NCBI GenBank assembly: GCA_945883545.1
Contig: CAMCXT010000008.1
Span: 7,396 to 71,395 of the forward strand
Length of the DNA stretch: 64,000 bases
From: Chitinophaga pinensis
Lineage (GTDB): Bacteria > Bacteroidota > Bacteroidia > M30B66
Direction of reading: 5' to 3'
Under the pieces are notes generated by a model. That model was given only the letters and a program-made list of their open reading frames with translations. It searched no databases and was not told where the DNA came from. Below, piece after piece: positions 5,158 through 57,285 of this stretch; position 1 is the first letter of the stretch, and each line of letters begins with the position of its first letter. A program made the position numbers and the translations under genes.

Positions 5158-6075
5158 ATGAAGTTGATTAAAAGTCTATTGATTTTCCTCCCGTTGCTGA
5201 TTCTTGCATCTTGCGGTAACACAGCTAACCCTAGCGGGGGAAAGAAAAAGATCGTAGTAACCACCGGCATGGTAGGTGATGCTGTAAAAAACCTTGTTGG
5301 CGATATCGCAGAAGTGGAAGTTCTGATGGGTGCTGGAGTAGATCCTCACCTGTACAAAGCTTCCCAGGGCGACATGGAAAAGCTCTCGAAAGCCGATATA
5401 ATCGTTTACAACGGTCACCATTTGGAAGGTAAAATGACAGAGGTGTTCGAAAAAATGCGTCGCAACAAGCCTGTTATTCCATTGGCAGAACTTGTTCATG
5501 AAAACCGCTACCAGCGTGCGCAAGAAGGCAGCAATATGATTGATCCACATATCTGGATGGACATCAAATCGTGGTCAACTGGAATTAGCAATCTCCGGGA
5601 AGATCTTATCGATCTATTCCCTAACGATTCGGCAAAGATTGAAAGCAACCACGACCAATATCAAAAGGAGCTCATCAAAACAGATTACCAAATTGAGCTC
5701 TTGATAGGTTCAATACCAACAAACCAAAGGGTAATCATTACCTCGCACGATGCATTTCGATATTTTGGATTGAATTATGGCATCGAAGTGAAAGGCTTAC
5801 AAGGCGTTTCAACTGTTTCCGAATATGGGCTGCGCGATGTAAGCGATATGGTGAATTTCATTGTGAACCGAAAAATCAAAGCTGTGTTCGTTGAAAGTTC
5901 AGTTTCGGATAAATCATTGCAAGCCGTGATTGAAGGATGCGCAAAAAAAGGCCATCAAGTGGTAATTGGAGGAAAGCTACACTCTGATGCCCTCGGAGCA
6001 GAAGGAACGCCCGAAGGTACTTACTGCGGAATGCTGCTTCACAATGCCCGAACAATCCAAAAAGCCCTGAAATAA
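5158..6075 (+). CDS. Metal (Mn/Zn/Fe) ABC transporter substrate-binding lipoprotein, ZnuA/TroA family
   Basis: Lipobox LILASCGN. DPHLY...DPHIW...SHDAF motifs typical of cluster A-I SBPs. Confidence 0.85.
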   Translation: MKLIKSLLIFLPLLILASCGNTANPSGGKKKIVVTTGMVGDAVKNLVGDIAEVEVLMGAGVDPHLYKASQGDMEKLSKADIIVYNGHHLEGKMTEVFEKMRRNKPVIPLAELVHENRYQRAQEGSNMIDPHIWMDIKSWSTGISNLREDLIDLFPNDSAKIESNHDQYQKELIKTDYQIELLIGSIPTNQRVIITSHDAFRYFGLNYGIEVKGLQGVSTVSEYGLRDVSDMVNFIVNRKIKAVFVESSVSDKSLQAVIEGCAKKGHQVVIGGKLHSDALGAEGTPEGTYCGMLLHNARTIQKALK

Positions 6076-6077
6076 GC

Positions 6078-6866
6078 ATGATCATCAACGTTCAGGATCC
6101 TTCGCTCGAAGCACACAATCTCACAGTTATTTACCACAGGAAACCAGTACTTTGGAACATCGATTTTTCCCTTCCCAAAGGTGAAATCATCGGAATCATG
6201 GGACCAAACGGCGCGGGCAAATCAACCCTCATCAAAGCCATTCTCGAACTCGCTCCATTGAATTCTGGATATTCAAAAATCTTCGGAAAATCCCTAAACG
6301 AAGTACGAAAGAAAGTAAGCTATATCCCACAACGTCAAACCATTGATTGGGATTTCCCCGCATCCGTCTCCGATGTAGTCATGATGGGAAGATACCCTTC
6401 ATTAGGGCTCTTTAAACGCATCACCAAAAGCGACCGCGAAATCGTGCGCCTTGCACTCGAACAGGTGAACATGACCGAATACGCCAATCGTCAAATTTCA
6501 CAGCTTTCAGGTGGCCAACAACAGCGCGTGTTTTTAGCTCGTGCCTTAGCTCAACAGGCAGATTTGTATTTATTGGATGAACCTTTTGTAGGTGTCGACG
6601 CATCCACCGAGGCAGCTATCATGCAACTGCTTCGAACCATGAAAAACGAAGGCAAAACCATTGTTGTAGTCCACCACGATTTGCACACAGCTGCCGAATA
6701 TTTCAATTGGTTGGTGCTCATCAATGCTTCACTCATTGCAAGCGGCCCTACCGAAAAAGTTTTCACCGACGAACTTCTTCGAAACACCTACAGCGGCAAA
6801 CTTACCGTGCTATCACAAGTGGGCGATGTAATGCGTGAACAGAATTTCCCGGTGCGCGAAAAATGA
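6078..6866 (+). CDS. Metal ABC transporter ATP-binding protein
   Basis: Walker A GPNGAGKST, signature LSGGQQQR, Walker B LYLLDEP. Confidence 0.9.
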   Translation: MIINVQDPSLEAHNLTVIYHRKPVLWNIDFSLPKGEIIGIMGPNGAGKSTLIKAILELAPLNSGYSKIFGKSLNEVRKKVSYIPQRQTIDWDFPASVSDVVMMGRYPSLGLFKRITKSDREIVRLALEQVNMTEYANRQISQLSGGQQQRVFLARALAQQADLYLLDEPFVGVDASTEAAIMQLLRTMKNEGKTIVVVHHDLHTAAEYFNWLVLINASLIASGPTEKVFTDELLRNTYSGKLTVLSQVGDVMREQNFPVREK

Positions 6867-8161
6867 CCTCAGATCAATTTATCGGATTTTTACTTCTCGA
6901 AGAGCCCAACGTTCGGATGGTCGTTGCAGGAACACTTTTGCTCTGCGGAATGGCAGCATTGGTAGGCTGTTTCACCTTTCTTAGGAAACGTTCATTAGTA
7001 GGTGATGCCGTTTCTCACAGCGTGCTGCCAGGAATTTGCATGGCGTTCCTCCTCAGTGGAGAAAAAAATCCAATCATCTTGCTTCTTGGTGCTTTAGCAA
7101 CAGGATTACTTTCGCTGATTTTGATGGAAGTCTTAAGTAGAAACAGACTCACACGACCTGATACTGCTATTTCATTGATGCTTTCGTTTTTCTTCGGATT
7201 GGGCATTCTTTTACTCACCTACATTCAACACCAAGGAAATGCAGCACAGGCAGGACTCGACAAATTCATTTTCGGCAAAGCAGCATCAATCACTGAAGCC
7301 GATTTAAGGCTATTTCTTTTCTCAGGAATATTCATCACTGCTTCTGTAGCAATCTTATTAAGAGGATTTTACTTGATTTCCTTCGATGAGGATTTTGCAC
7401 GTGCAACTGGATTCCCCATCAAGTTCTTGAGACTATCGTTGTCGGTACTTACCGTGTGGACTGTCGCCATTGGTATTCAAGCAGTTGGAGTGGTTTTAAT
7501 GGCTGCTTTGCTCATCACGCCTGCTCTTGCGGCTCGCTTTTGGACCCATTCGATTGGGAGGATGCTTGTTATTGCTGCCCTTTTCGGGATGATTGCAGGT
7601 TATACCGGATCGTTTGTTTCTTACCTAGCTCCAGCCATGCCAACCGGCCCGTGGATAGTTGTAATGGCGACTTTCATTGCCATTGTATCGATGTTTCTTG
7701 CTCCTGGCAGAGGATTGTTGGCACGTTGGAACACCCGAAGTAAAAACCGAGAAAAAACACTGTTGGAGAATATCCTGAAACTCTTCTACCAAATCGGTGA
7801 AAAGTCAGGGCAATTGCAAGGAAACATCCTTGAAGAAGATCTCCTCAACCATCGAGCATTTGGGCACGATGAACTTCGTAAAGGATTGAAACGGTTAACC
7901 TCCAAAAATCTTCTGGAATCGAACCTGCTAACTTATCGCCTCACCAACCAAGGATTGCTAGAAGCACAAAGAATCGTTCGCTTACACCGCTTGTGGGAGT
8001 TGTACTTACAACGTTATCTGCACCTTGAACCTGATCATGTGCACGATGATGCTGAAGCGATGGAGCACGTGATCACTCCTGAAATCGAAGCCCAACTGGA
8101 GCTCATTCTCGGCAATCCAGAAACAGATCCTCACAATACCATTATTCCTCCGAAGGCATGA
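6863..8161 (+). CDS. Metal ABC transporter permease (ABC-3 family) fused to a C-terminal DtxR/MntR-like repressor domain
   Basis: About 285 aa of TM permease, then ...RLTNQGLLEAQRIVRLHRLWELYL...HVHDDAEAMEHVITPE...DPHNTIIP, i.e. the DtxR-family wHTH end plus metal-binding/dimerisation motifs. ATGA overlap with the ATPase gene. Confidence 0.85.
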   Translation: MTSDQFIGFLLLEEPNVRMVVAGTLLLCGMAALVGCFTFLRKRSLVGDAVSHSVLPGICMAFLLSGEKNPIILLLGALATGLLSLILMEVLSRNRLTRPDTAISLMLSFFFGLGILLLTYIQHQGNAAQAGLDKFIFGKAASITEADLRLFLFSGIFITASVAILLRGFYLISFDEDFARATGFPIKFLRLSLSVLTVWTVAIGIQAVGVVLMAALLITPALAARFWTHSIGRMLVIAALFGMIAGYTGSFVSYLAPAMPTGPWIVVMATFIAIVSMFLAPGRGLLARWNTRSKNREKTLLENILKLFYQIGEKSGQLQGNILEEDLLNHRAFGHDELRKGLKRLTSKNLLESNLLTYRLTNQGLLEAQRIVRLHRLWELYLQRYLHLEPDHVHDDAEAMEHVITPEIEAQLELILGNPETDPHNTIIPPKA

Positions 8162-11258: not shown

Positions 11259-14159
11259 TTATTGCCCTGGAGGTGGTCCAATCGGATTGGTTCCATAACC
11301 CGGTTCCCTTGGTCCAAAAACTCCGGGAGGAGCTCCTGCTGCAGGCTTGAAACTTCTCAAAGTGTAAGTGAAGGTCAACATGAAATACCTATTCAAAACA
11401 CGTGTGATATTGTCTTCCACAAAGGTTTCGGTTACGGTTCTGGTAATACTGTTGTTTTGATTTAAAATATCAAAAGCTGAAATCTTTAATTCGCCAGCTT
11501 GATTTTTCAGGAATTTATATCCCAAATAGGCATTCCACAAAATAAATTGCTGATCAAACCCTTCGCCTAATCCAATGAATTGATTGTAATTGAAATCCGA
11601 ATTCAACACAAATCTTTTCGATGGCATCCAGTTGATTTTCGCGCCAGCTGTATGAATTTGATAATTGTTATTTAACTGAGGCTGAAGAGAATTTTCTACA
11701 ATATTCCAACCTCCGTTGTATGACAAGGTAAAATCAAGTTTTTCGCTGATATTACTTGCGATAACAACTCCTCCACTCCACATGGTATTTGCGGTTTCAT
11801 TGCGAATTCCATTCACCATACCTGGTGTCAAGATGTAATTATTACCAGCCTGGAAATTCAATGTGCTTTTTAGAAATTTCAGTGGTGTGCTGTAAGTTAA
11901 AAGCGATCGAATTGCAACATAACCGTTCATATTTACCGGGCGACTTAATTGCGCTCCTGGACGTAAATTTATCCCCTCATACACGGTTGTATCGCCGTTA
12001 GCCAATAAAGTAGCATTTGCAATGTACTGATTGGTGAATGAGGCACTTCCATTAAAAAACAAAGATCTGCTCGTATTGGCATTTGTAGTTCCAAAACGGG
12101 CAGTGATGGATTGTGAAAACTCTTGTTTCAAATCTGGATTTCCAGTGCTCAATTGAAGCGGATTGCTATTGTCGACTACGTTTTGCAATTGAGCTACACT
12201 GGGAGAATTGGTATTGCTTCGGTAAAACAACCGAAGGTTTGTGGCTGAACTGAATTTGTAATTAAGCATCGCAAATGGCAAAACATTCACCCACGATTTT
12301 CGAAGCGATAATCCTTCAGGAAAAGTAGTTTCATTCGCCAGCGTAAATTGTTGCACGTTGAAATTAATTACACCCATCAATTTCGGCGATCTAAGTCGGA
12401 TTCCCGCGCCACCTCTTTGAATGGTTTGCGTGTTATTGAATTGATTGCTCAACGAAGAATCCAATCGGGTTAATTCGTTGGTAATGGAATCGTTTCGAAA
12501 CGTCCGCTTGTCAGAGTAATTGTAAGTAATCGATGGAGCATAACTCAAAAACAACTGCATCACTTTGCCCAAAGGCTCGGTGTATGTGAGGTTGGAAGAA
12601 TATGTCTGACTGTTTGTGTAATTCTCACCTTTCTGCTTGAAAGTGATGGTTGAATCGAACTGCGAAAAATCATTCGAAGTGGTGAGATCAGAATTACCAT
12701 TGCGTTCATTCCAATCGGCATTCAGCGCCAATGAAACCGTTCTACCTGTTTTTTTGAATCGGTGACGAATCAGAAGGTTGTTATTGACACTGTAAGGTGT
12801 ATTCGCAGAACTGTTAATGGTTTTGGTATTGCTTAATGATGCATCAGAATTGATTCTTGTAGCACCATCGAGATCGGATCCAGCTTGATTTCCTTGCCAA
12901 GAAATTCGAGGGGTATAAATAATTGAATTCATCGTATCGAGCGTGTATTCGATTCGAAGGTTTAACCTATGATTCAAATTGTTCGACCACGAGGTATTGG
13001 TTTCGTTGTAGTTCTGTGTAGTGGTATCGTTGAGGAAAAATGCTCGATTTACAGTTTTATCGGTTGCATTGTAAGTGTTGTTGAAGAAATAGCTTCCCTG
13101 GAACTTCAATTTTGGAGACAGCGAATCAGAGTAATTTATTCCTAATGTATGCGTGGTGTTGATTCCATTCGATTGATTTACCATGAAATTCGACGGATCC
13201 GATGCACCCGGAACCATGCCCATCATGCGCATCATTCCACCGCCGCCACCTCCGCCGCCAGCGCGCCCACCACCAGCCGAACCACCTGTTAGACCAATTA
13301 AATCTTGAGATGAAAAATTCTGCTGGTTGATATTATTGGATTGCCCAAGAATGGTAAACTTTCGATTTCCCTTGAATTTGTTGTAGTTAAAACCAGCGTT
13401 AAATCGATCGTCTGTGCCATATCCACCATAAAACTTGCCGAAACTGGCATTTTTCATTCCTCCACCGCGCGTAATTACATTGATCGAACGACGCGAATTG
13501 CCGTCATCAAACCCAGTAAATTGCGCTTGATCACTCAATCTATCAAACACTTGAATTTTTTCAACGACTTCGGCAGGCAGATTTTTTAAAGCGGTTGCAG
13601 CATCATCACCAAAAAACTCCTTCCCATCAATCAAAACCTTCTGCACTGTTTCTCCGCCAGCTTTCAAGGTGCCATTTTCGACCGTCATGCCGGGCATTTT
13701 CTTCACCAAGTCTTCCAAATTCGCATCTGGATTGGTTTTAAAAGCGGCTGCATTAAATTGTGTGGTGTCGCCTTTTTGCTCCGTTCGAACCTGAGCTCCT
13801 TCAACATTTAACTCCTTTAGATTCTTAGAATCCACTTCCAAAAAAATTGGCCCCGTTCGAACAGGTTCATTCGCAACTACAATCGATTTATATTGGTATT
13901 TATAACCGACAGATCTAATTTGTAAAATGTAATTACCCGCGTCCACATTGTTGATCGAAAAAATTCCCTCCGGGGAAGTTGGAGCCCCCTTGTAAATGGA
14001 AGAATCAGGTTTCAAAAGCACTGCACCGGCACCTGGAATCGGTTCTTGGCTAGCTTTGTCCATCACCCGACCTCGTACCGATGATTGTGCATCGAGCCCG
14101 GAAACGAAGAACATTGATAGAAAAACAAGAAGGATTGTGGAACGTATGGATATATTCAT
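11259..14159 (-). CDS. Outer-membrane beta-barrel / TonB-dependent-receptor-like protein with N-terminal CarboxypepD_reg-like domain
   Basis: Signal peptide, then a VRGRV.D....PIPGA...GNY.L..SVGY domain, then a long beta-rich region ending ...TFTYTLRSF. Internal Gly run. Confidence 0.78.
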   Translation of the reverse strand: MNISIRSTILLVFLSMFFVSGLDAQSSVRGRVMDKASQEPIPGAGAVLLKPDSSIYKGAPTSPEGIFSINNVDAGNYILQIRSVGYKYQYKSIVVANEPVRTGPIFLEVDSKNLKELNVEGAQVRTEQKGDTTQFNAAAFKTNPDANLEDLVKKMPGMTVENGTLKAGGETVQKVLIDGKEFFGDDAATALKNLPAEVVEKIQVFDRLSDQAQFTGFDDGNSRRSINVITRGGGMKNASFGKFYGGYGTDDRFNAGFNYNKFKGNRKFTILGQSNNINQQNFSSQDLIGLTGGSAGGGRAGGGGGGGGMMRMMGMVPGASDPSNFMVNQSNGINTTHTLGINYSDSLSPKLKFQGSYFFNNTYNATDKTVNRAFFLNDTTTQNYNETNTSWSNNLNHRLNLRIEYTLDTMNSIIYTPRISWQGNQAGSDLDGATRINSDASLSNTKTINSSANTPYSVNNNLLIRHRFKKTGRTVSLALNADWNERNGNSDLTTSNDFSQFDSTITFKQKGENYTNSQTYSSNLTYTEPLGKVMQLFLSYAPSITYNYSDKRTFRNDSITNELTRLDSSLSNQFNNTQTIQRGGAGIRLRSPKLMGVINFNVQQFTLANETTFPEGLSLRKSWVNVLPFAMLNYKFSSATNLRLFYRSNTNSPSVAQLQNVVDNSNPLQLSTGNPDLKQEFSQSITARFGTTNANTSRSLFFNGSASFTNQYIANATLLANGDTTVYEGINLRPGAQLSRPVNMNGYVAIRSLLTYSTPLKFLKSTLNFQAGNNYILTPGMVNGIRNETANTMWSGGVVIASNISEKLDFTLSYNGGWNIVENSLQPQLNNNYQIHTAGAKINWMPSKRFVLNSDFNYNQFIGLGEGFDQQFILWNAYLGYKFLKNQAGELKISAFDILNQNNSITRTVTETFVEDNITRVLNRYFMLTFTYTLRSFKPAAGAPPGVFGPREPGYGTNPIGPPPGQ

Positions 14160-42970: not shown

Positions 42971-43182
42971 GGTTCAAAGGTATTCATTTGACTAAAAAGC
43001 CGTCGTTGCGCACTTGCAGTTTTAACCCGCATATCTACCCAAATAATTTTAAACGACTCATTTTCTATTATTTACAACAAAATAGCGAATCAAAAGCCCA
43101 AAATCACCAAACCGCCCATTGCCACATTTGCCATCATTGACTACATTTGCGTCATTCATCGACTAGTTATTCGTCAATAAAT

Positions 43183-46119
43183 ATGTTGAACTGTCACTCA
43201 TGGTTTAGTCTACGCTATGGCACCTTATCGCCAGAGCAGCTCATTGCGCAATTGCTTGAGCTTGGCTATACGAGTGCGGCATTAACCGACATCAACACAA
43301 CCTCAGGATGCCTCGATTTTGTGCGCATCTCGAATGAGATGGGCCTACATCCTGTAATTGGCGTAGAGTTTCGCGATGATGGATTGCTCCAGTTTGTTGC
43401 TCTAGCGATTAATAATGATGGATTTGAGCTGATCAATCGGCATTTGTCGTCGAAACTTACTGAAGGAGCAACCCTAGCAGCCGAAGCTCCAGAACAATGG
43501 AATGGGCACGTTTGGGTGATTTATCCTTTGAAGAACATTCCCAAAAGAAAACTGTTTCCCAACGAATTCATAGGTCTTAGCCTTCAAGATTTGAAAAGTG
43601 TATGGAAGCCTAGAGATCCGATCCTCAACAGAGCAGTAGTTTTACAAGCATTTACCTTTCCCGACAAAGCGCATAACAATATCCATAGGCTATTGCGAGC
43701 GATCGATCAAAATACTTTACTGAGCTTACTCGACCCTCTGCAATGTGCCGCGCCTGATGCCTTTTTACTTCCACGAAAAGACCTTGTGTCTGCTTTTTCG
43801 TCATTCCCTGAAGTCATCGCGCGCAGTTTGCAGTTGCTAGAATCTTGCAATGTAGAATTTGAGTTTGGCGTATCAAAAAACCGAAAAACCTTTACTGGAT
43901 CTAAGGTGCAAGACAGGCAACTTCTCGAGAAACTAAGTTTGGATGGCATGCAATATCGTTACGGCAAGAAGAACAAAGAAGCCCAGAAAAGATTGAAGCA
44001 TGAGTTGGAGGTGATTGATAAATTAGGCTTCACACCCTATTTTCTGATCACTGAAGACATCATCCGCTATGCTCGACACCGAGGATTTTTCCATGTTGGA
44101 AGAGGGAGCGGCGCCAATAGCATTGCGGCTTACTGCTTACAAATTACGGATGTTGACCCCATCGAATTGGACCTATATTTTGAGCGATTCATCAATCCGC
44201 ACCGCACATCGCCGCCCGATTTCGATCTCGATTTTTCGTGGCGCGACCGTGATGAAATTTTGAATTACATATTTCAGCGATACGGCACCGAACATACTGC
44301 TCTAATTGCGACTTACACAACTTTCCAAGACAGGGCCGTTATTCGAGAATTGGGCAAGGTGTTCGGGTTGCCGAAATCGGAAATCGACATTCTCAGCGGA
44401 CTCAAGCAACTCCCCAAAGATGCAGATCAAATTAGCCGATTGATCTTTCGTTACGGTGAAAAAATCCATGGCTTCCCTAATCATTTGGGCATCCATGCAG
44501 GCGGAGTGATCATTTCAGAGTCGCCCATTTATCGATATACCGCCACCCAAATGCCTCCCAAGGGCTTGCCCATTACACAATTCGACATGTATGTTTCGGA
44601 AGAAGTGGGCTTATATAAATACGATATATTAAGTCAGCGCGGATTGGGACACATTCGAGAAGCCACCGAATTGATTCTCGAAAACAGGCAAATCAGTGTG
44701 GATATCCACCGGGTTTCGGAATTCAAAAAGGACTTGAAAATCAAACAGCTCATAAAGACAGGTCGAACAATGGGCTGTTTCTATGTTGAATCACCCGCGA
44801 TGCGGATGTTGTTAAGTAAACTAAAATGTGAAGATTATATCACACTGGTTGCGGCAAGCTCAATTATTCGACCGGGAGTTGCGAAATCCGGTATGATGAG
44901 AGAATACATCCACCGTTTTCACCATCCAGGAAGCTTCAGCTACATCCACCCAAAGATGGAAGAGCTCCTCAAAGAAACCTATGGGGTTATGGTTTACCAG
45001 GAGGATGTAATTAAGGTAGCGCATCATTTTGCAGGGCTAGATCCTGCCGATGCCGATATATTGCGCAGAGGAATGTCGGGGAAATTCAGGTCGGCGAAAG
45101 CCTTCCAACTCGTTGCAGATAAATTCATGCAAAACTGCCGCGATATGGGCTATCCCGAAGCGGTTTACACCGAGGTTTGGCGACAAATGGAGAGCTTTTC
45201 GGGGTATTCGTTTTCTAAAGCGCATTCTGCCTCTTTTGCCGTAGAAAGTTTTCAGAGTCTATATCTGAGAGCACATTTTCCACTGGAATTTATGACTGCC
45301 GTATTGAACAACTTCGGTGGATTTTACAAAACACAAGATTATGTGCATGAGGCACGCATGCTTGGTGCTAAAATCGAGGCGCCTTGCGTGAACAGAAGCA
45401 TGCACTTAAACAGCATTTTCGACGATTCAATATACTTAGGTTTTGTGCTTCTGCACCAGCTCGAGGAGCGGAGTTCTGCCATGATTCTCCGCGCTCGAGC
45501 GCAGAGTGGGCCCTTTCTTGGACTTGCTGATTTTGTTTCGCGCGTTAACATTGGTTTGGAACAAGTCCTTATTCTGATTCGTGTTGGAGCCTTTCGATTC
45601 ACCAGTAAACCCAAAAAAGAACTGCTTTGGGATGCACATCTTATTGTAAACAAAACAAGTGTGAAGGTGGAAAAGCCAGCACAGCTATTTCATGCCAATG
45701 AGCCAGATTACAAATTCCCAAACTTAGAAGACTCGTTTATTGAAAATGCATACGATGAGATCGAATTATTGGGATTTCCATTGTGCTCTCCATTCGATCT
45801 AATTGCCCCAACGAAAGATGAATCGATTCGAGCCAAAGAATTATGCAACAACTTAGGGAAACAGGTGCAGATTCTTGGTAGCGTGGTGGCAGTAAAAGAC
45901 ACTCGAACGGTGAAAGGCGAACGAATGAACTTTGCCACATTTGTAGATCAGGATGGCTATTTCTTCGACAGTACACATTTTCCACAAGTGGTAAAACAGT
46001 CGCCTTTCCGAGGCCGCGGCATTTATCGCCTGAAAGGAAAAGTTGCTTGTGAGTTTGGCTTCTTCAGTCTCGAGGCAAGTTACATGGAAAAGATCCCTTA
46101 CCTCGCAAGGGGATATTGA
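43183..46119 (+). CDS. dnaE2: DNA polymerase III alpha-subunit homologue, short DnaE2/ImuC-like form
   Basis: N-terminal PHP motif (LNCHSWFSLRYG), ...GRGSGANS..., ...PPDFDLDF..., ...GIHAGGV..., ...FSKAHSASFA. About 978 aa, so it lacks the long DnaE1 C-terminus. Confidence 0.8.
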   Translation: MLNCHSWFSLRYGTLSPEQLIAQLLELGYTSAALTDINTTSGCLDFVRISNEMGLHPVIGVEFRDDGLLQFVALAINNDGFELINRHLSSKLTEGATLAAEAPEQWNGHVWVIYPLKNIPKRKLFPNEFIGLSLQDLKSVWKPRDPILNRAVVLQAFTFPDKAHNNIHRLLRAIDQNTLLSLLDPLQCAAPDAFLLPRKDLVSAFSSFPEVIARSLQLLESCNVEFEFGVSKNRKTFTGSKVQDRQLLEKLSLDGMQYRYGKKNKEAQKRLKHELEVIDKLGFTPYFLITEDIIRYARHRGFFHVGRGSGANSIAAYCLQITDVDPIELDLYFERFINPHRTSPPDFDLDFSWRDRDEILNYIFQRYGTEHTALIATYTTFQDRAVIRELGKVFGLPKSEIDILSGLKQLPKDADQISRLIFRYGEKIHGFPNHLGIHAGGVIISESPIYRYTATQMPPKGLPITQFDMYVSEEVGLYKYDILSQRGLGHIREATELILENRQISVDIHRVSEFKKDLKIKQLIKTGRTMGCFYVESPAMRMLLSKLKCEDYITLVAASSIIRPGVAKSGMMREYIHRFHHPGSFSYIHPKMEELLKETYGVMVYQEDVIKVAHHFAGLDPADADILRRGMSGKFRSAKAFQLVADKFMQNCRDMGYPEAVYTEVWRQMESFSGYSFSKAHSASFAVESFQSLYLRAHFPLEFMTAVLNNFGGFYKTQDYVHEARMLGAKIEAPCVNRSMHLNSIFDDSIYLGFVLLHQLEERSSAMILRARAQSGPFLGLADFVSRVNIGLEQVLILIRVGAFRFTSKPKKELLWDAHLIVNKTSVKVEKPAQLFHANEPDYKFPNLEDSFIENAYDEIELLGFPLCSPFDLIAPTKDESIRAKELCNNLGKQVQILGSVVAVKDTRTVKGERMNFATFVDQDGYFFDSTHFPQVVKQSPFRGRGIYRLKGKVACEFGFFSLEASYMEKIPYLARGY

Positions 46120-46581
46120 AAAGTATAAAGCAGCCAGCTTAAGAAACGGTGATTCATAAAAATCATAGCAATGTAAAGGTATTGATTTCGCAAAGCGATT
46201 TTTGGGTTGATTATACCTGTCGATACAATTGAATTTTGTCAATTTCGATTTTCGAAAATACTTTATCAGACAACAATTAATAGGTTTGTCATTACTTCGG
46301 AGAATTTATCGAGTATAATACTTCAAATAAAACAAGTTAAATCCATTTTTTTCTGCAAATAAAAGTTGGCTTGTAAAAAACTTTCAATCATCTCAGAGGA
46401 TTTAAAATTCATATTCAATCAACAATTAACGCATAAATAAATACCGATATTAGGCAATCTTAAAAGCTCTAACAAAAGAAATATGAGAACTTTTAAACGC
46501 AAAATAAACAAGGTTATAAACAGAACTGTTTGTAATAAAAAAACAAGACTGTTTAAGGTATTTCTCATTTAACGAAATTTG

Positions 46582-46956
46582 CACTGGGAAGGGGATAGAT
46601 GCGGGTTCCCTTCGACAATTCAAAATAACTTGTCAAGTGAAAAATGAGAAAAGAAATCAACACGACTGTTAATTCTAATTTGATCATTCAATTCGATAGT
46701 GTTTAATTAAACCCGAACTTTCCACTGGGAAGGGGATAGATGCGGGTTCCCTGCGACAATTCAAAATAACTTGTCAAGTGAAAAAAGGAGAAAAGAAATC
46801 AACACGACTGTTAATTCTAATTTGATCATTCAATTCGATGGTATTTAACTAAATCCGAACTTTCAACTGGGAATGGGATAGATGCGGGTTCCCTTCGACA
46901 ATTCAAAATAATTTGTCAACTGGAAAATGAGAAAATAAATCAACACGACTGTTATT
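46582..46956. repeat. Tandem array 2: three copies (period 141 bp) of a non-coding element related to the core of array 1; the last copy has the core only
   Basis: Cores start at 46582, 46723 and 46864 (CACTGGGAAGGGGATAGATGCGGGTTCCC...). The linkers are also conserved. A degenerate partial copy may lie just upstream. Confidence 0.92.
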
Positions 46957-47108
46957 GGTAATGGCAATAATGACGAGCAGGTTGTGTATTCAATTATATT
47001 TTACTAGACTAGAAAATAATCTTAAAATAAAAGTAATGAGAAAAGTCAGCAAATCAATGTCATAGGCTCTTGTAATGTTGAACTCAATGTCATACCTTAG
47101 ACAAAGAG

Positions 47109-47879
47109 ATGAAAGGATTTCAAATCACAAGCAAAAAATACTTTGACGATTCTATGTCATTGATTGGCAATGAAATAGATAATCTAGTCAGTAGATTTGA
47201 TTTCAAATACAAAGACTTAGATCTTGGCTATCAAACTCAGTCTTCGGCTGTTTATTCTTCAAACATTGAAGGAAATACAATTGATTTGAATTCATTCATG
47301 AATTTCAAATTATCAAATGAAAAATTTAAACCCAGTAAAGAAATAAAAGAAATTGAAGACCTAATTCTTGCATACGATTTTGCTCAGAAAGAGATCTTAA
47401 ACCAGAAAAACTTCCTTAAAATTCATAAAATTCTATCTGAAACACTATTAATATCGAGTTTAAGAGGTAAGTATAGAAATGATAAAGTTGGAGTTTTTAG
47501 CGAGTCTGGATTAGTCTACTTTGCTATAGAATCTGAATTTCTAAAAGAAACTATGAATGAGTTATTTTCAGAAATCGGAGAAATTTTATCAAGTAATTTA
47601 AGCATTGAAGAAGTTTTTTATTTCGCATCACTTATTCACATGAAGTTTGTTCACATCCACCCATTTAGAGAAGGAAATGGTAGAACTGCAAGAATTCTTG
47701 AAAAATGGTTTATTACAACAAAACTTGGCGAAGAATTTTGGAAACTACCTTCTGAAAAGTATTATAAAGAAAAACAAGCTGATTATTACAGAAATCTAAA
47801 TTTAGGAGTGAATTATTATGAGTTGAATTATGACAAATGCTTGCCTTTTTTAACTATGCTGCCAAACTGCATGAAATAA
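47109..47879 (+). CDS. Fic-family protein (class II type with internal inhibitory motif)
   Basis: Fic motif HPFREGNGRTAR. N-terminal SSNIEG fits the [ST]xxxE[GN] inhibitory-helix motif. Confidence 0.88.
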   Translation: MKGFQITSKKYFDDSMSLIGNEIDNLVSRFDFKYKDLDLGYQTQSSAVYSSNIEGNTIDLNSFMNFKLSNEKFKPSKEIKEIEDLILAYDFAQKEILNQKNFLKIHKILSETLLISSLRGKYRNDKVGVFSESGLVYFAIESEFLKETMNELFSEIGEILSSNLSIEEVFYFASLIHMKFVHIHPFREGNGRTARILEKWFITTKLGEEFWKLPSEKYYKEKQADYYRNLNLGVNYYELNYDKCLPFLTMLPNCMK

Positions 47880-48074
47880 TTGATTCAATCGCATAATAAC
47901 TAATAGGCTCAATTAGGTAATTGGTAGTTTTCACAATCATCGAGTTACCAGAAAACCTTCAATAACTTTTATACATTTGAGAAAACTTGCCATTTATTGC
48001 CAACAGCACATCGATGTTTTCAATGATTCAACAAATCAGTTTTAAAATGGTCACAGAAAATAAATTAAGAAAAA

Positions 48075-48605
48075 ATGAAATTTATTTTTGCCTTTTTTTT
48101 GACCGTATTTACAACAACAGTTTATTCTCAAAGATTCGACAGTCTTGAGATTCCTTCCAATTCATTTGAAAGTAGCTACCGAAAGACAAATCCTAATTTA
48201 ATGTATAAATATGACGATATATCCCAAACACACAACTACTCTAATAACTGGGACTTTGACAAAGACGGGATAAATGACGAACTGTATTTTATTGGAACAG
48301 GTGGTACGCATTTATACTATTATCTAAAAGTGATTTTGAGTACTGATAAATTACCCCGAGAATTTGATTTCATCCAATCTGACTTTCCTTTCCTAACAGC
48401 GACCGACACATTGAATATGAATAAAACACCTTTAGGTTTTGTCGTCGCAGACCTTGAAACAGACATGAAACCAACTGTTATCGTTCGTCTTGATGATAAA
48501 ACATATCAAGTGAATAAAAATAAATTGACTAAACTGAGAATCAAAACTAGAAATATTGCGATTAGCTTTGAAAATGGCAAATCAAATTACCAAAGCCTAA
48601 AATAA
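48075..48605 (+). CDS. Hypothetical secreted protein
   Basis: Signal peptide MKFIFAFFLTVFTTTVYSQ. No recognised domain. Confidence 0.5.
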   Translation: MKFIFAFFLTVFTTTVYSQRFDSLEIPSNSFESSYRKTNPNLMYKYDDISQTHNYSNNWDFDKDGINDELYFIGTGGTHLYYYLKVILSTDKLPREFDFIQSDFPFLTATDTLNMNKTPLGFVVADLETDMKPTVIVRLDDKTYQVNKNKLTKLRIKTRNIAISFENGKSNYQSLK

Positions 48606-53276: not shown

Positions 53277-53350
53277 GGCGGGGTAGCTCAGATGGTTAGA
53301 GCGCAGGATTCATAACCCTGAGGTCACGGGTTCAACTCCCGTCCCCGCTA
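53277..53350 (+). tRNA. tRNA with CAT anticodon (elongator Met, or Ile2 if lysidine-modified)
   Basis: Hand-folded 74-nt cloverleaf: GGCGGGG/CCCCGCT acceptor (G1-U72), D arm GCTC-AGATGGTTA-GAGC, anticodon loop TTCATAA, T arm ACGGG-TTCAACT-CCCGT. The paired 1-72 position argues against an initiator. Confidence 0.85.
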
Positions 53351-53357
53351 CAAGAAA

Positions 53358-53561: not shown

Positions 53562-54029
53562 ATGGCTACAGAAATAGAACACAAGTTTTTAGTTTTCAAA
53601 AACATTTGGAAAAAAGTAATTCCAGACAAAAGTGTTGAAATCAAACAAGCCTATTTGCTAACTGATCCTGAAAAAACAATTCGGGTCAGAACAAAAGGTA
53701 ATTCTGGTTTTATAACGATTAAAGGTAAGTCTAATGGTGCCATCAGACTTGAATTCGAGTATGAAATACCCATTGAAGATGCAAATGAATTAATCAATAA
53801 ATTTTGTTCCAATCTAATTGAAAAGACAAGACACATTGTAATTCATGACGATAACACTTGGGAAGTAGATGAGTTCAAAGGGCTCAATGAAGGATTAATT
53901 GTTGCAGAAATAGAATTAACATGTGAAGACGAGAAATATTCAATACCCAATTGGATCGACAAGAATGTAACAGAAGACCTTAGGTATGCTAACTCTAATT
54001 TAACAATCAAACCTTTTACTACTTGGTAA
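53562..54029 (+). CDS. CYTH-domain protein (triphosphate tunnel metalloenzyme / class IV cyclase-like)
   Basis: N-terminal EIEHKFLV (ExExK) signature, ...IRVR..G....TIKG..., ...WEVDEF.G.N.GL.VAEIEL, 155 aa. Confidence 0.85.
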   Translation: MATEIEHKFLVFKNIWKKVIPDKSVEIKQAYLLTDPEKTIRVRTKGNSGFITIKGKSNGAIRLEFEYEIPIEDANELINKFCSNLIEKTRHIVIHDDNTWEVDEFKGLNEGLIVAEIELTCEDEKYSIPNWIDKNVTEDLRYANSNLTIKPFTTW

Positions 54030-54191: not shown

Positions 54192-54611
54192 TCAGCCCCT
54201 CAAAACCATTTCAGTCACATTCTTTAACTTAATGTTGTAGAAATTAAAATCATCCAAGCTAGGCACTTCTTCTTCGATGATATCGATAACGCAATCTTTT
54301 AAAGGAATTGACTCGAATAACAATGAGAAGACACGCCAATCCTCCGTTGATTCAAATTCGAATTGTTGTGGGGCAAGGGGAATATTTATCGCTTCTTTTA
54401 AGGCATATTTTTTCTTGCTGCCATGCACTTGAATATGAGTATATGGGGCAATGCGAATCCAACCACCACGATCATACATCCAAGGTGCTATGTATCCAAA
54501 ATCAATTTTAATGTATTGCGCTCCCATGAGAACACGAAGAATTTTCGGATTCTTTATGATCAGTTCACTAGCATCTACATTAACTAAATAAACATCCTCC
54601 GTTTTTTTCAT
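54192..54611 (-). CDS. Small protein of unknown function, paralogue family member A (translationally coupled to the WYL regulator)
   Basis: 139-aa ORF. Its ATG overlaps the WYL gene stop (TAATG). Clearly alignable with 55771-56163 and 655-1062. Confidence 0.6.
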   Translation of the reverse strand: MKKTEDVYLVNVDASELIIKNPKILRVLMGAQYIKIDFGYIAPWMYDRGGWIRIAPYTHIQVHGSKKKYALKEAINIPLAPQQFEFESTEDWRVFSLLFESIPLKDCVIDIIEEEVPSLDDFNFYNIKLKNVTEMVLRG

Positions 54612-55675
54612 TATGCTAAATTTTCAGTGAATTCCTTAAACCATTTGGGTTTTACAATTTTAACATGTCTGCCTTGGGATAAAAAGTACCTAGCAAGCTC
54701 GACAGATGCAATAATCTCAAAGCGAATAAAAGAAGTGCCTTCGTTTTCCTTCTCAATTGTTTGACTTTCATGCAGCGGATATGCTTGGAAATAATGAGTT
54801 CCTAATTGACTAACATGAATCTGAATGAGCTCCTTTTTAGCACCAGGTATTGGAAACACACCAAATACATCATTTAGATAAGAATGCACTAATTGTGGGT
54901 CGATGAAGTGATAGTTCCGATTAATAAATAAGGGCTCTGTTACTCGATCTAATCCAAATGTCCGAATCTCATCGTGGAGCTCAGAATAACCAATAACATA
55001 CCATCGATTTTCAAATTCTTTAATTAGAAAGGGATGAAGGAGTATATGATTAAAGGTGCGTTTTTTATAAGAAAAATGAATGAATGATAATGGAATCTTT
55101 TCACGACAAGCTTTGTAAATCAACTCAATATGTTCAAATCCACGTGAAGTTGGAGGAATCATCGTTTGAATAACAGGCTCCTTGTTTTCATCAACATTGG
55201 CTTTTTCTAATGTTGATGAGAGTATCTTTTCAACAGCATGGTTGAATTTATCGCTCATCCGAGTTCCTCCAATAGACCTGATGATATTAATGGCTTCGCT
55301 GATTGCATCAATTTCTTCCTGCCTTAACGAAACTCCTAAAAGGGAATATTCGGAATCCGTATACTCATATCCCCTTTCAGCTCGATTGTATCTTATAGGC
55401 GCATCAAATCCATCGGGATAAGGCAATCGCATATTCGCAATGTCCTTTTGAATCGTTTCTTCTGAAGGATAAAAATCAAGTTTGGAATGGCAAGCCTCCA
55501 TAAAGTCTACCATTTTGGGATAGCGATTCATAGAATTCCGAAGAACACTATCTATCACTTTGTACCGACGAAATGCACTTTTACTAAGGTTCACAGATTT
55601 TTTTTCGAAAAATAACAAATTATTTCCACTCCGTACAAATAATACGGAGTTCATATTGTCCTTTGTTTCATCCAA
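54611..55675 (-). CDS. WYL-domain transcriptional regulator (N-terminal HTH, central WYL, C-terminal extension)
   Basis: ...LSKSAFRRYKVIDSVLRN... N-terminal HTH-type segment. WYL core ...ILLHPFLIKEFENRWYVIGYSELHDEIRTFGLDRV... The start may be ATG 55654. Confidence 0.8.
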   Translation of the reverse strand: MDETKDNMNSVLFVRSGNNLLFFEKKSVNLSKSAFRRYKVIDSVLRNSMNRYPKMVDFMEACHSKLDFYPSEETIQKDIANMRLPYPDGFDAPIRYNRAERGYEYTDSEYSLLGVSLRQEEIDAISEAINIIRSIGGTRMSDKFNHAVEKILSSTLEKANVDENKEPVIQTMIPPTSRGFEHIELIYKACREKIPLSFIHFSYKKRTFNHILLHPFLIKEFENRWYVIGYSELHDEIRTFGLDRVTEPLFINRNYHFIDPQLVHSYLNDVFGVFPIPGAKKELIQIHVSQLGTHYFQAYPLHESQTIEKENEGTSFIRFEIIASVELARYFLSQGRHVKIVKPKWFKEFTENLA

Positions 55676-55695
55676 AATTTCTCATTGTGGAAACC

Positions 55696-55721
55696 ATCAT
55701 CGAAAAGATCATCGAAAAAAG
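55696..55721. promoter_or_regulatory. Tandem direct repeat ATCATCGAAAAG / ATCATCGAAAAAAG in the divergent promoter region, candidate operator
   Basis: Two adjacent copies between the WYL gene start and ATG 55771. No functional evidence. Confidence 0.2.
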
Positions 55722-55770
55722 TGTTCAAGAAAAGCAAACAAGGATAACTCGCCTATACAATCCAGCATGT

Positions 55771-56163
55771 ATGGATTTTACAAATAGGCATAGAGTTAAA
55801 TCAATTGAAGCTACTGAAGAATACACACGCATCGACTTTATATACCGCTCTTCCATGATTTATATCAATGGAGGCTGGATCCAGATGGCTCAAGGTGCAT
55901 ATATTCAACTAGTTGGATCAAAGAAGCGATATGGTTTAATTAAAGCTATCGGGATCCCAATCACTCCTCAAAAGCACTACTTCACAAGACAAGGAGAATT
56001 CCATACTTACACGCTCATTTATGAAGCTGTTCCAAAAAACACTTCCAAAATTGACATCATTGAAAAGAAAGACGGAAAAGATTGCTTCAATTTTTATAAT
56101 GTGGACTTTTCTAAATGGATGACTATTCCACATGCTGCTGATTTGGCTATTTCAAACAATTAA
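55771..56163 (+). CDS. Small protein of unknown function, paralogue family member B
   Basis: ATG 55771 gives 130 aa, the same size class as A. The track ORF starts at TTG 55663 and would overlap the WYL gene start. Shared motifs: GGWI, GSKK(K/R)Y.L..AI.IP..PQ, (F/Y)E(S/A)(I/V)P, IDIIE, FNFYN. Confidence 0.6.
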   Translation: MDFTNRHRVKSIEATEEYTRIDFIYRSSMIYINGGWIQMAQGAYIQLVGSKKRYGLIKAIGIPITPQKHYFTRQGEFHTYTLIYEAVPKNTSKIDIIEKKDGKDCFNFYNVDFSKWMTIPHAADLAISNN

Positions 56164-56165
56164 TT

Positions 56166-56666
56166 ATGAACCTCAATTTACTTAAAGAAAACATACTTGA
56201 GACTAAATTGAATCTGTTAAGAATTCAATTAGAAAAACAAACTGCTATAAAGGACCTGCAGTATGAAAAGGCGGCTAACTTAAGAGAGCAAGAAAAGCAG
56301 ATCCGTGAGCACATTGAAAATTTGAAATCTGTAGTTATAAAATCTATTCATACTTTAAAAGTCGAACACGGAAGTATTGCCGATTTTATCCTATTACAAG
56401 CACTATTACTTGAGTTTCATTCTATTGATTTTCTAAATGATTGCTCATATACACAATCAATAGAAGTTATCGAAAATTACATGAATTGCTACTGGAGAAT
56501 CAGAGAGCAAATGCAAGATGATCTGATGAAATTCTTGTGTGATGAATACCAATATTTAAGAGTTCAAATTCGTAATTTCAACAACGAATCAGACACATTT
56601 AATGCGCAAGAGGCGATATCACGTCTTACATCAATTAGCGATATCATAAATAGGCATTCGAATTAA
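56166..56666 (+). CDS. Coiled-coil protein with N-terminal UVR-like motif
   Basis: AIKDLQYEKAANLREQEKQI resembles the UVR motif (compare FMEAARLRDEL in uvrB of this window). Starts 2 nt after the stop of paralogue B. Confidence 0.5.
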   Translation: MNLNLLKENILETKLNLLRIQLEKQTAIKDLQYEKAANLREQEKQIREHIENLKSVVIKSIHTLKVEHGSIADFILLQALLLEFHSIDFLNDCSYTQSIEVIENYMNCYWRIREQMQDDLMKFLCDEYQYLRVQIRNFNNESDTFNAQEAISRLTSISDIINRHSN

Positions 56667-56859: not shown

Positions 56860-56891
56860 AATCTGATGCTTAAAAATGGGTGCATCAGATT
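56860..56891 (+). terminator. Hairpin (10-bp stem) downstream of the cassette, weak terminator candidate
   Basis: AATCTGATGC-N12-GCATCAGATT. No clean U tract follows. Confidence 0.3.
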
Positions 56892-56943: not shown

Positions 56944-57285
56944 ATGAAAATTTCTAATTCTGAAATGACTCATAAAATCGCTTACAACACTTTGGTGATT
57001 TTATTGATTACTGCAATTTCATTTGTTGTCTCATCGATTTTGTATTATGGTTGTTACTATGTATCATACTTTTTTGACTGGAAATTTGAGCTAAGCTATT
57101 GGCTTTATTGGGTTATCACTGAATCAATTCTGTTGATTTATTATATAAAAACAACCATCTCATCTAAAGAAAAAAAAGGACTCCTGTCAAAAGCAGGAAG
57201 ACACTATGAGGATACAAATTGGATGTCATCGCATGTCGATAGTGATTATTGGGATCCACCAACTGATTATTACGATAGGCCTTAG
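56944..57285 (+). CDS. Small membrane protein (2 TM), unknown function
   Basis: 113-aa ORF with two hydrophobic helices. Confidence 0.45.
   Translation: MKISNSEMTHKIAYNTLVILLITAISFVVSSILYYGCYYVSYFFDWKFELSYWLYWVITESILLIYYIKTTISSKEKKGLLSKAGRHYEDTNWMSSHVDSDYWDPPTDYYDRP

Follow-up and report, generated by a model that had tools for sequence, protein, structure and literature searches.

A WYL-gated modular gene cassette of aquatic Bacteroidota with a possible role in phage defence or mobile-element conflict

What does a WYL-domain regulator control when the genes coupled to it belong to no catalogued system? The question is raised by a cluster of four genes in a 64,000-nucleotide stretch of DNA from Chitinophaga pinensis (assembly GCA_945883545.1, contig CAMCXT010000008.1, positions 7,396 to 71,395), which is referred to as the window. 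The cluster, at window positions 54192-56666, consists of two divergent gene pairs, as stated in the original prediction, and all four open reading frames (ORFs) are present both in the ORF list and in the sequence. On the minus strand, the gene of a helix-turn-helix (HTH)-WYL-WCX regulator (54611-55591) is followed by that of smallA (54192-54611), its partner, a predicted cytoplasmic beta-sandwich protein of 139 residues. On the plus strand, the gene of smallB (55687-56163), a paralogue of smallA, heads an operon, the second gene of which encodes U166 (56166-56666), an all-helical protein of 166 residues with an N-terminal UVR hairpin motif. The comparison with related loci indicates that the four genes very probably form a real, conserved and WYL-controlled cassette. 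The full statement, that this is a WYL-gated modular cassette of aquatic Bacteroidota with a role in phage defence or mobile-element conflict, is made with middling confidence.

The intergenic region and the regulator

The genes within each pair are coupled as tightly as was predicted. The TAA stop codon of the WYL gene (54613-54611) shares one base with the ATG of smallA (54611-54609) in the sequence TAATG, and 2 nt separate the TAA of smallB (56161-56163) from the ATG of U166 at 56166. The starts of the two divergent genes were corrected by an alignment in which the reading frames were extended upstream in about 30 orthologues. The WYL orthologues all begin with MNLSKSAFRRYKVID, and the window has GTG at that codon (VNLSKSAF...), which places the start at 55591 and gives a protein of 326 residues in place of the 354 read from the longest ORF (TTG 55675). 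Every smallB orthologue starts with METEIEKIIE...(23 residues)...YNP; the corresponding codon of the window is the GTG at 55687 (VETIIEKIIEKSVQEKQTRITRLYNP), and smallB has 158 residues, not the 130 proposed previously. The divergent intergenic region, which must hold both promoters, keeps the predicted length of 95 bp and moves from 55676-55770 to 55592-55686. With the smallB start at 55687, the direct repeat ATCATCGAAAAG / ATCATCGAAAAAAG (55696-55721), which had been assigned to the divergent region, is therefore coding sequence: it corresponds to smallB codons 4-11 (IIEKIIEK). It is also unconserved as a repeat in orthologues, and it was ruled out as an operator.

The conserved feature of the true intergenic region is a perfect 8-bp inverted repeat, ACTCCGTA-N7-TACGGAGT, which had no place in the original prediction. 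It is positioned in the middle of the region at 55628-55650, 36 nt from each start codon, and represents the candidate operator of the WYL regulator. As single-stranded DNA, the palindrome folds with a z-score of -4.3. Its core, CCGTA-N7-TACGG, occurs a single time in the window; of the first 46 related loci, 29 contain it in exact form. Altogether 35 exact copies of the core were counted in about 446 kb of related loci, against 0.17 expected from base composition. Each of these copies is positioned approximately 50 nt 5' of a cassette gene, and the WYL gene is always preceded by one. The orthologous intergenic regions are mostly 81-96 bp long (range 57-124) and have an identical layout, with the position of the palindrome fixed across 28 aligned distinct regions. 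Further copies, exact or with one mismatch, precede the gene of a long form of the UVR protein (loci L001, L013, L020, L021, L029 and L051), DUF932 genes (L001 and L043-45), the short UVR gene of L038, a gene of family c6 in L039 and a relocated smallB gene in L040. The candidate operator thus recurs before every transcription unit of the module, which argues for the supposed regulatory link between the WYL protein and the divergent promoter. This sequence evidence suggests that one regulator site controls both operons and that the regulon is small.

The -7 promoter element of Bacteroidota has a TAnnTTTG-like consensus. An ACAAAG/CTTTGT box is at least 80% conserved across the 28 palindrome-anchored regions; in the window it is located at 55658-55665 on the plus strand, 7 nt past the operator arm on the smallB side, and its CTTTG(T) strand is a candidate -7 element of the smallB operon. 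If the box is read in this way, the operator coincides with the expected position of the upstream elements in both promoters. A scan of the region with a sigma-70 promoter model, which is the wrong model for Bacteroidota, gave scores no better than those of shuffled sequences.

The assignment of the regulator to the WYL proteins was borne out by the Pfam models WYL (PF13280; E = 6.3e-11, 42.6 bits against a cut-off of 21.8) and WCX (PF25583; E = 4.9e-5), the latter by a bare pass of 24.0 bits against 23.9. The regulator also matches the WYL models of PADLOC (E = 6.8e-19), and its relatives carry the JGI name "DNA-binding transcriptional regulator YafY". The family profile is colinear with PafB (E = 6.6e-8), with WYL-domain / DeoR-family regulator chains, to which the alignment spans regulator positions 198-323, and with BrxR (E = 0.002). 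No Pfam HTH model matches the regulator at E up to 1. Conservation within the family is highest in the first 70 residues, which are located at the place of the HTH of PafB, the colinear alignment starting at residue 72; their position and conservation point to them as the putative DNA-binding domain. The protein is filed as a distant member of the winged-HTH-WYL-WCX regulators, with a putative HTH.

BrxR binds inverted repeats and acts as a repressor, and 48% of its homologues adjoin defence systems (PMC9122601). Single-stranded DNA bound to the WYL domain of CapW causes CapW to leave double-stranded DNA (PMC11662680). The cassette regulator resembles these two proteins in its combination of WYL and WCX domains, in its size and in the palindrome just 5' of its own gene (PMC9122601, PMC11662680). 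Several orthologous loci have known defence systems as neighbours, and by analogy the regulator would be expected to form a dimer and to release DNA when it binds a ligand. However, the similarity is remote, with an E-value of 0.002 for BrxR even by family profile, and the regulator comes from Bacteroidota, whereas BrxR homologues are described as predominantly proteobacterial (PMC9122601). The cassette regulator is always co-translated with a beta-sandwich partner, which the described members do not have, and the genes under its control are uncharacterised and do not belong to BREX, CBASS or another named system.

It is also conceivable that the regulator is an activator of the type of PafBC of mycobacteria or DriD of Caulobacter. 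Such a protein, once bound to single-stranded DNA, would recruit RNA polymerase to both promoters as part of an accessory response to DNA damage or stress, to which the UVR-motif protein would contribute a function related to repair or to chaperones. There are documented cases of WYL proteins that activate damage responses (PMC10853764, PMC13010146). Among solved structures, the best sequence matches of the regulator are WYL-domain / DeoR-family regulator chains and mycobacterial PafB in its complex with RNA polymerase (7p5x). Single-stranded DNA is a plausible ligand here as well. The operator, at the place of an upstream promoter element, ends directly 5' of the candidate -7 box, 7 nt before the conserved CTTTG, a placement that we take to resemble the geometry of PafBC sites. 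However, the cassette has one WYL gene and no PafB/PafC pair, and one symmetric site shared by a pair of divergent promoters is the classic layout of an autorepressor.

Conserved gene content and variable partners

Conservation was assessed in a one-genome-per-species scan to which loci from exact-protein look-ups were added, with ORFs classified by family hidden Markov models. Cassettes were counted as distinct if their WYL proteins differed by more than 5% (n = 34; pairwise WYL identity down to 40%), and the counts were corrected by hand from the raw script output where ORF starts had been over-extended. The scan resulted in 37 loci, all of them in metagenome-assembled genomes of aquatic Bacteroidota with Flavobacteriales, Crocinitomicaceae, Chitinophaga-like and Sphingobacteriia as hosts, and all four look-ups initiated from WYL proteins gave the identical arrangement. 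The WYL gene is followed by smallA in 34 of 34 distinct cassettes, usually with an ATGA overlap. The upstream sequence is visible in 26 cassettes; approximately 21 of these contain a divergent smallB and 17 a UVR coiled-coil protein, the latter in a short form of 150-170 residues (9 cassettes) or a long form of 357-377 residues (8 cassettes), never both. The survey thus establishes that the small-protein family and the UVR proteins are conserved beside this WYL subfamily. In the remote member L059, the genes of the WYL regulator, smallA, smallB and the UVR protein form one collinear operon, which indicates that gene content is conserved and gene order is not.

The paralogy of smallA and smallB, which had been recognized previously, is reflected in an identity of 42% over 96 residues (E = 4e-26). 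The median identity is 56% within the A group, 60% within the B group and 36% between them, and on these values the two form distinct, old subfamilies. SmallB carries a charged N-terminal extension of 25 residues, and the median pI is 5.7 for smallA and 8.8 for smallB. At least 153 homologues of smallA exist, all unnamed and without Pfam hits. The AlphaFold2 (AF2) model of smallA (pLDDT 87, pTM 0.83) is all-beta with eight strands. Neither paralogue has a match in Pfam, NCBIfam, PADLOC or PHROGs, and a sequence-profile search of the PDB with the small-protein family gave only E-values above 0.7. The comparison of the smallA model with the PDB by Foldseek provided nothing below E = 0.09, the weak matches listed being generic beta-sandwiches, and the PDB and BFVD together gave nothing below E = 0.03. 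The earlier statement that the paralogues have no recognizable domain therefore holds for these six collections, and the predicted folds of smallA and U166 suggest no housekeeping fold with a known role. Bacterial gasdermins were considered because of the associations with CHAT, caspase-like and trypsin proteins described below. They were rejected, as no gasdermin is among the weak fold matches listed for smallA and proteins of 139-158 residues are too small.

The two paralogues had been called effector-like. For smallB this description is compatible with its position at the head of the output operon; it does not suit smallA, which is the invariant and translationally coupled partner of the WYL protein. 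Since smallA is kept where smallB is absent (L001-3, L015, L019 and L025), it looks like part of the regulatory unit. The same loci bear on the idea of a toxin-antitoxin-like pair, in which smallB with U166 would inhibit growth and smallA would neutralize them by mimicry. Paralogues of opposite charge, as expressed in the median pI values, under one regulator could be understood in this way, but smallA persists without smallB in these loci, neither protein resembles a known toxin in Pfam, PADLOC, NCBIfam or Foldseek searches, and smallB-like proteins are encoded beside vWA genes in the absence of smallA and WYL. A toxin-antitoxin function is extremely improbable.

Beyond the cassettes, a profile search of 1.84 billion representative proteins identified 895 relatives of the beta-sandwich domain. 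Most of the best 150 of the 895 are short cytoplasmic proteins resembling smallA and smallB, whereas at least 18 of the 150 are long secreted proteins of Bacteroidota in which the domain follows a signal peptide, according to a crude signal-peptide test. Of 10 long proteins that were scanned, 7 are fusions of the domain with Trypsin_2 peptidases, and in one protein the domain is joined to an AAA ATPase. SmallB-like genes without smallA or WYL are located directly before vWA genes among loci L060-L063, one of them approximately 1 kb from the gene of a MoxR-type ATPase. Because of these fusions to peptidases and an ATPase and the vWA partners, the beta-sandwich is proposed to be a binding or adaptor module. 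The Trypsin_2 fusions sometimes hold three or four copies of the domain (proteins examined: P0161, P0201, P0225, P0242, P0262, P0276 and P0189). The number of smallB copies also varies: L052 has two tandem smallB genes (5947-6910), L022 has an extra smallB-like gene 3 kb away (725-1183), and one genome bin (JBEGVI01) holds two separate cassettes, L008 and L023. This expansion may be relevant to the function of smallB.

The UVR-like motif that had been noticed at the N terminus of U166 scores above the gathering threshold of Pfam UVR at residues 19-48 (E = 3.3e-5, 23.9 bits against a cut-off of 21.5). The nearest solved sequences are segments of the M-domain of ClpC, with which residues 9-55 align at E = 0.003. 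These two matches constitute the likeness of U166 to UvrB, UvrC and ClpC, in which the known role of the UVR hairpin is to mediate protein-protein contacts. The AF2 model of U166 (pLDDT 85) consists of five helices and has no fold match in the PDB other than generic helical bundles. U166 contains no nuclease or helicase domain detectable by Pfam and no AAA+ domain, and thus differs from UvrB, UvrC and ClpC and is outside those families. A UvrB or UvrC protein was rejected as its identity because only the 30-residue UVR motif is common to both; the remainder is the five-helix bundle. The long UVR form of other loci is homologous to U166 in its C-terminal half (E = 4e-6), whereas its N-terminal half resembles the AAA+ domains of Hda, DnaA and DnaC, with a degenerate Walker A motif. 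It has no PADLOC match at E up to 0.001.

Two further associations of UVR proteins were observed. Locus L052 contains, at 11983-13622 and 5 kb from its cassette, a second, different WYL plus WCX gene (297 residues) that is convergent with the gene of a 247-residue protein matching the UVR coiled-coil profile, and the pair may be an independent WYL-UVR association. An HNH nuclease of 137-155 residues together with an 80-residue protein recurs beside the long UVR gene (L001 9272-9685, L020 2033-2500, L021, and L051 4130-4543). The HNH nuclease of L001, the one copy that was read, has a signal-peptide-like N terminus; a secreted HNH nuclease would be unusual.

The occurrence of UVR motifs in UvrB, UvrC and ClpC is compatible with a regulator of the PafBC or DriD type. 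However, neither a nuclease nor a helicase domain is present in U166, and as an accessory island module the cassette is not a chromosomal repair regulon: its distribution is patchy and island-like, its cargo varies and includes CHAT and caspase-like proteases, and it has restriction neighbours, all of which is unlike a core repair regulon. Together with the layout of the operator, these properties make an activator of damage or stress genes decidedly unlikely, and repression remains the preferred reading of the switch.

The gene positioned 3' of smallB differs among cassettes. It encodes U166 in the window and in other loci, a strongly acidic 135-residue protein (family c4; pI 4.5, charge -13) in several loci, and a protein of family c6 in several others. 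In L014 the position is taken by a 785-residue TPR-CHAT protease (E = 6.6e-38), in L041 by a vWA protein and in L031-33 by an uncharacterised protein of 286 residues. In L048, smallB is followed by a UVR protein and then by a 252-residue protein with a weak match to Peptidase_C14 (caspase) and with GHS and DCC motifs. DUF932 genes are located 3' of smallA in some Bacteroidota cassettes, and they are preceded by the operator. Family c6 was considered as a divergent DUF932 and rejected, the hhalign probability being 1.2%.

Caspase-like, CHAT and trypsin-like peptidases and vWA/MoxR modules are the effectors of certain modular conflict systems. In such systems, reportedly described by Kaur, Burroughs, Iyer and Aravind in 2020, the sensor and its interchangeable effectors are connected by a common adaptor domain. 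The cassettes are alike in that the beta-sandwich domain stands beside both a sensor (smallA) and variable effectors (smallB with CHAT, caspase-like or vWA proteins), and that it is fused to Trypsin_2 and AAA domains elsewhere. They differ in that most cassettes have no NTPase core and in that the beta-sandwich matched no named adaptor domain in our searches; homotypic pairing of the paralogues is hypothetical here.

Defence systems are neighbours of several orthologous loci, though not of the window copy; they are given here by locus. Near the cassette of L048 are a type I restriction-modification (R-M) system, an AlpA-like HTH_17 gene and a Toprim/AAA_25 primase-helicase; near that of L059 a type III R-M system, KilA-N and Fic; near that of L052 ResIII/RE_endonuc, PDC-S26 and the second WYL gene; and near that of L051 an Mrr-like type IV enzyme and RtcR-CARF. 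Several Crocinitomicaceae have a retron-type reverse transcriptase (E = 9e-93) and a DnaB-like helicase. GmrSD and the toxin-antitoxin pair RES-Xre are also among the neighbours, and the flanking housekeeping genes of related loci include GatB, LpxK and queuosine synthesis. The reverse transcriptase of Crocinitomicaceae (PADLOC match) belongs to a block a few kb from the cassette (L013, L014, L016, L020 and L029; approximately 8.3-11.3 kb in L014) that also contains a 187-residue protein, the DnaB_C helicase, an RtcR-CARF sigma-54 activator and DUF3127. The block looks like a defence island or a satellite-like element.

The restriction neighbours allow the explanation that the WYL-smallA pair mainly regulates adjacent defence systems, as BrxR does for BREX, and that smallB and U166 are incidental passengers. 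In both L048 and L059, WYL-smallA is located directly 5' of, and on the same strand as, an HTH_3 gene and an R-M system, of type I in L048 and type III in L059; in L059, WYL-smallA is followed by the genes of smallB, the UVR protein and a small membrane protein. However, the operator was found solely before cassette families and never before restriction genes. The genes farther downstream are different in nearly every locus, frequently in the opposite orientation, and nothing defence-like follows smallA in the window. Regulation of neighbouring systems as the main function is very doubtful, and control of the cassette's own genes is preferred.

Surroundings of the window copy

The copy in the window is a bare 4.3-kb AT-rich islet amid housekeeping genes, bordered by tRNA-Met and a CYTH-domain gene on one side and by the gene of a small membrane protein on the other. 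The AT-rich stretch, the tRNA gene and the neighbouring CYTH gene had all been pointed out, and they are visible in the GC profile (0.31-0.37 across 53.5-57.5 kb against 0.42-0.50 in the flanks), the tRNA-Met at 53277-53351 and the CYTH gene at 53562-54029 (plus strand) between the tRNA and the cassette. Two tRNAs are the sole Rfam matches. The adjacency to a tRNA gene is real here but does not characterize the cassette in general, as only four other distinct cassettes are near tRNA genes, each of them a different one. Although tRNA-Met is adjacent, the islet was rejected as an integrative mobile element: the ORF list and Pfam searches show no integrase or recombinase in it, and no direct repeat of the tRNA end, which would mark an attachment site, was found around it. 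A search of metagenomes for an empty site by means of the flanking PAP2 gene provided only relatives with 36-51% identity and no nearby tRNA gene.

These surroundings, together with the contents of some related loci, bear on a further explanation, namely that the cassette is a module of mobile elements. In such a module the WYL protein would respond when its own element enters the cell or is induced, for example by way of single-stranded DNA, and would switch on genes for establishment, anti-defence or replication control: smallB, the UVR proteins, the acidic 135-residue protein, DUF932 and the DnaA/Hda-like protein. Operator copies precede DUF932 genes (L001 and L043-45), and DUF932 matches phrog_1221. 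The long UVR protein has a DnaA/Hda-like AAA+ N terminus with its degenerate Walker A, the c4 proteins are acidic enough to resemble DNA mimics, and an AlpA-like HTH_17 gene and a Toprim/AAA_25 primase-helicase are beside the cassette in L048. Several cassettes, the one in the window included, abut different tRNA genes, and the islet is AT-rich.

There is also a parallel in Escherichia coli K-12 (NC_000913, 2768665-2770404; L047), where the DUF932 gene yfjQ of the cryptic prophage CP4-57 adjoins yfjR, which was scanned as HTH_DeoR plus WYL. This pair and the BrxR/CapW cases of a regulator with a defence island are the nearest described arrangements. The likeness is that of a WYL regulator adjoining a DUF932 gene in an integrated element. 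YfjR is shorter, with 233 residues, and no WCX match was found in it; the E. coli pair has no beta-sandwich partner and no UVR protein, and the window copy has no DUF932. The literature search found no paper that mentions both DUF932 and WYL, and the titles and abstract openings of papers on DUF932 or YfjR give no sign of a functional study.

Several observations do not fit a module of mobile elements. No integrase, relaxase or transfer gene is present in the window or among the 25 of 138 families listed from 150 neighbouring proteins, and searches of plasmid, phage and viral-contig collections gave no relative. Many copies, such as those of the window and L050, are bare four-gene islets amid housekeeping genes, and the window copy lacks not only DUF932 but also c4 and the DnaA-like gene. 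The mobile-element explanation is unlikely, and a WYL-gated cassette with a defence or conflict role is retained as the working interpretation.

Some genes of the window are outside the conserved module. The CYTH gene matches the phage family phrog_6660 (E = 1.5e-23); it stands beside the cassette only in the window and in the 96%-identical locus L006, and is therefore not part of the module. A 10-bp stem-loop with a U-rich tract at 56860-56891 on the plus strand (RNA fold -13.2 kcal/mol, z-score -2.3) is a weak candidate for a possible terminator of the smallB-U166 operon. This terminator-like hairpin is in the 277-nt gap between U166 and the gene of a 113-residue protein with predicted membrane helices (56944-57285, plus strand), which is shortened to 59 residues in L006. 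Unrelated small membrane proteins are also encoded 3' of the UVR gene in L019 (82 residues) and L059 (111 residues). The 113-residue protein may be an occasional membrane effector, or its position may be coincidence; a small membrane protein was rejected as a regular fifth component of the cassette, because it follows the UVR gene in only three groups.

Farther away in the window, at 43147-46119 on the plus strand, is the gene of a 990-residue DnaE-type DNA polymerase III alpha subunit with PHP, DNA_pol3_alpha, finger and HHH_6 domains. A replicative DnaE would be expected to be longer, and this gene could encode an error-prone polymerase of the DnaE2/ImuC type. A second AT-rich patch (46000-48600, GC 0.28-0.34) contains a Fic/DOC gene (47109-47879, E = 1.2e-14) and a gene for a 176-residue protein (48075-48605), and may be another small acquired islet. 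Fic genes recur near cassettes of other genomes.

Proposed function and significance

Joint regulation of the cassette is well supported by the comparison of related loci. Four elements of the mechanism that we propose are inferred: that the regulator represses and does not activate, which ligand it binds, how the proteins contact one another, and the role in defence. In this mechanism, a dimer of the regulator would bind the single palindrome at the -33 (upstream) elements of two back-to-back promoters and would thereby control both bicistrons, WYL-smallA and smallB-U166, jointly. By analogy with CapW and BrxR, the resting state would be repression. A nucleic-acid signal, for example single-stranded DNA arising from phage attack or DNA damage, would then bind to the WYL domain and cause the release of the regulator. 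SmallA would most likely be a stoichiometric partner of the regulator, acting as a co-sensor or adaptor, and smallB with its interchangeable downstream partner would be the output. The beta-sandwich paralogues, perhaps paired with one another, would serve as binding or adaptor modules through which the sensor is linked to the resident effector. The biological role of such a device would be phage defence or mobile-element conflict. It is possible, though doubtful, that the cassette is a new, Bacteroidota-specific, inducible anti-phage or anti-element system built on an undescribed beta-sandwich family, in which the sensor-bound and effector-bound paralogues pair and transmit the signal and the WYL protein is both switch and part of the relay.

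A number of observations weigh against this interpretation. From the geometry of the operator, a repressor cannot be told apart from an activator of the PafBC type that takes the place of the upstream promoter element, and PafB is the best sequence match of the regulator in the PDB. In the window copy, no protein has a recognizable enzymatic or pore-forming domain, and smallA, smallB, U166, the CYTH protein and the 113-residue protein have no matches in PADLOC-DB 2.0.0 at E up to 1. No known defence gene is located within 4 kb of this copy, its neighbours being the CYTH gene, the small membrane protein and housekeeping genes. Since signal peptides are present on the Trypsin_2 fusions, the beta-sandwich domain is not specific to cytoplasmic conflict systems. 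Searches of IMG/VR viral contigs and of phage and plasmid records gave no relatives, and the family is known only from uncultured genomes. The DUF932 genes, the DnaA/Hda-like long UVR protein and the AlpA-plus-primase neighbours fit a mobile-element function at least equally well.

The arrangement had been proposed to be undescribed, and the cargo is indeed absent from the catalogues searched (Pfam, NCBIfam, PADLOC and PHROGs). WYL regulators are increasingly recognized as widespread switches in bacterial immunity; nearly all the cases studied are proteobacterial or actinobacterial and control named systems. Here the WYL switch is hard-wired to an obligate partner and to uncatalogued cargo. 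The clean, conserved operator allows the regulon to be read directly from sequence, and recognizable proteases fill the position after smallB in some genomes. The hosts are abundant freshwater and marine Bacteroidota, the defence repertoire of which is poorly explored. If the cassette is a module of mobile elements instead, it would offer a first handle on the pairing of WYL with DUF932, which is also unexplained in E. coli K-12. If the proposed role is correct, the cassette would add a new domain family and a new linkage between sensor and effector to the known defence systems, and its four small genes and one 23-bp operator would be a tractable model for WYL sensing outside Proteobacteria.

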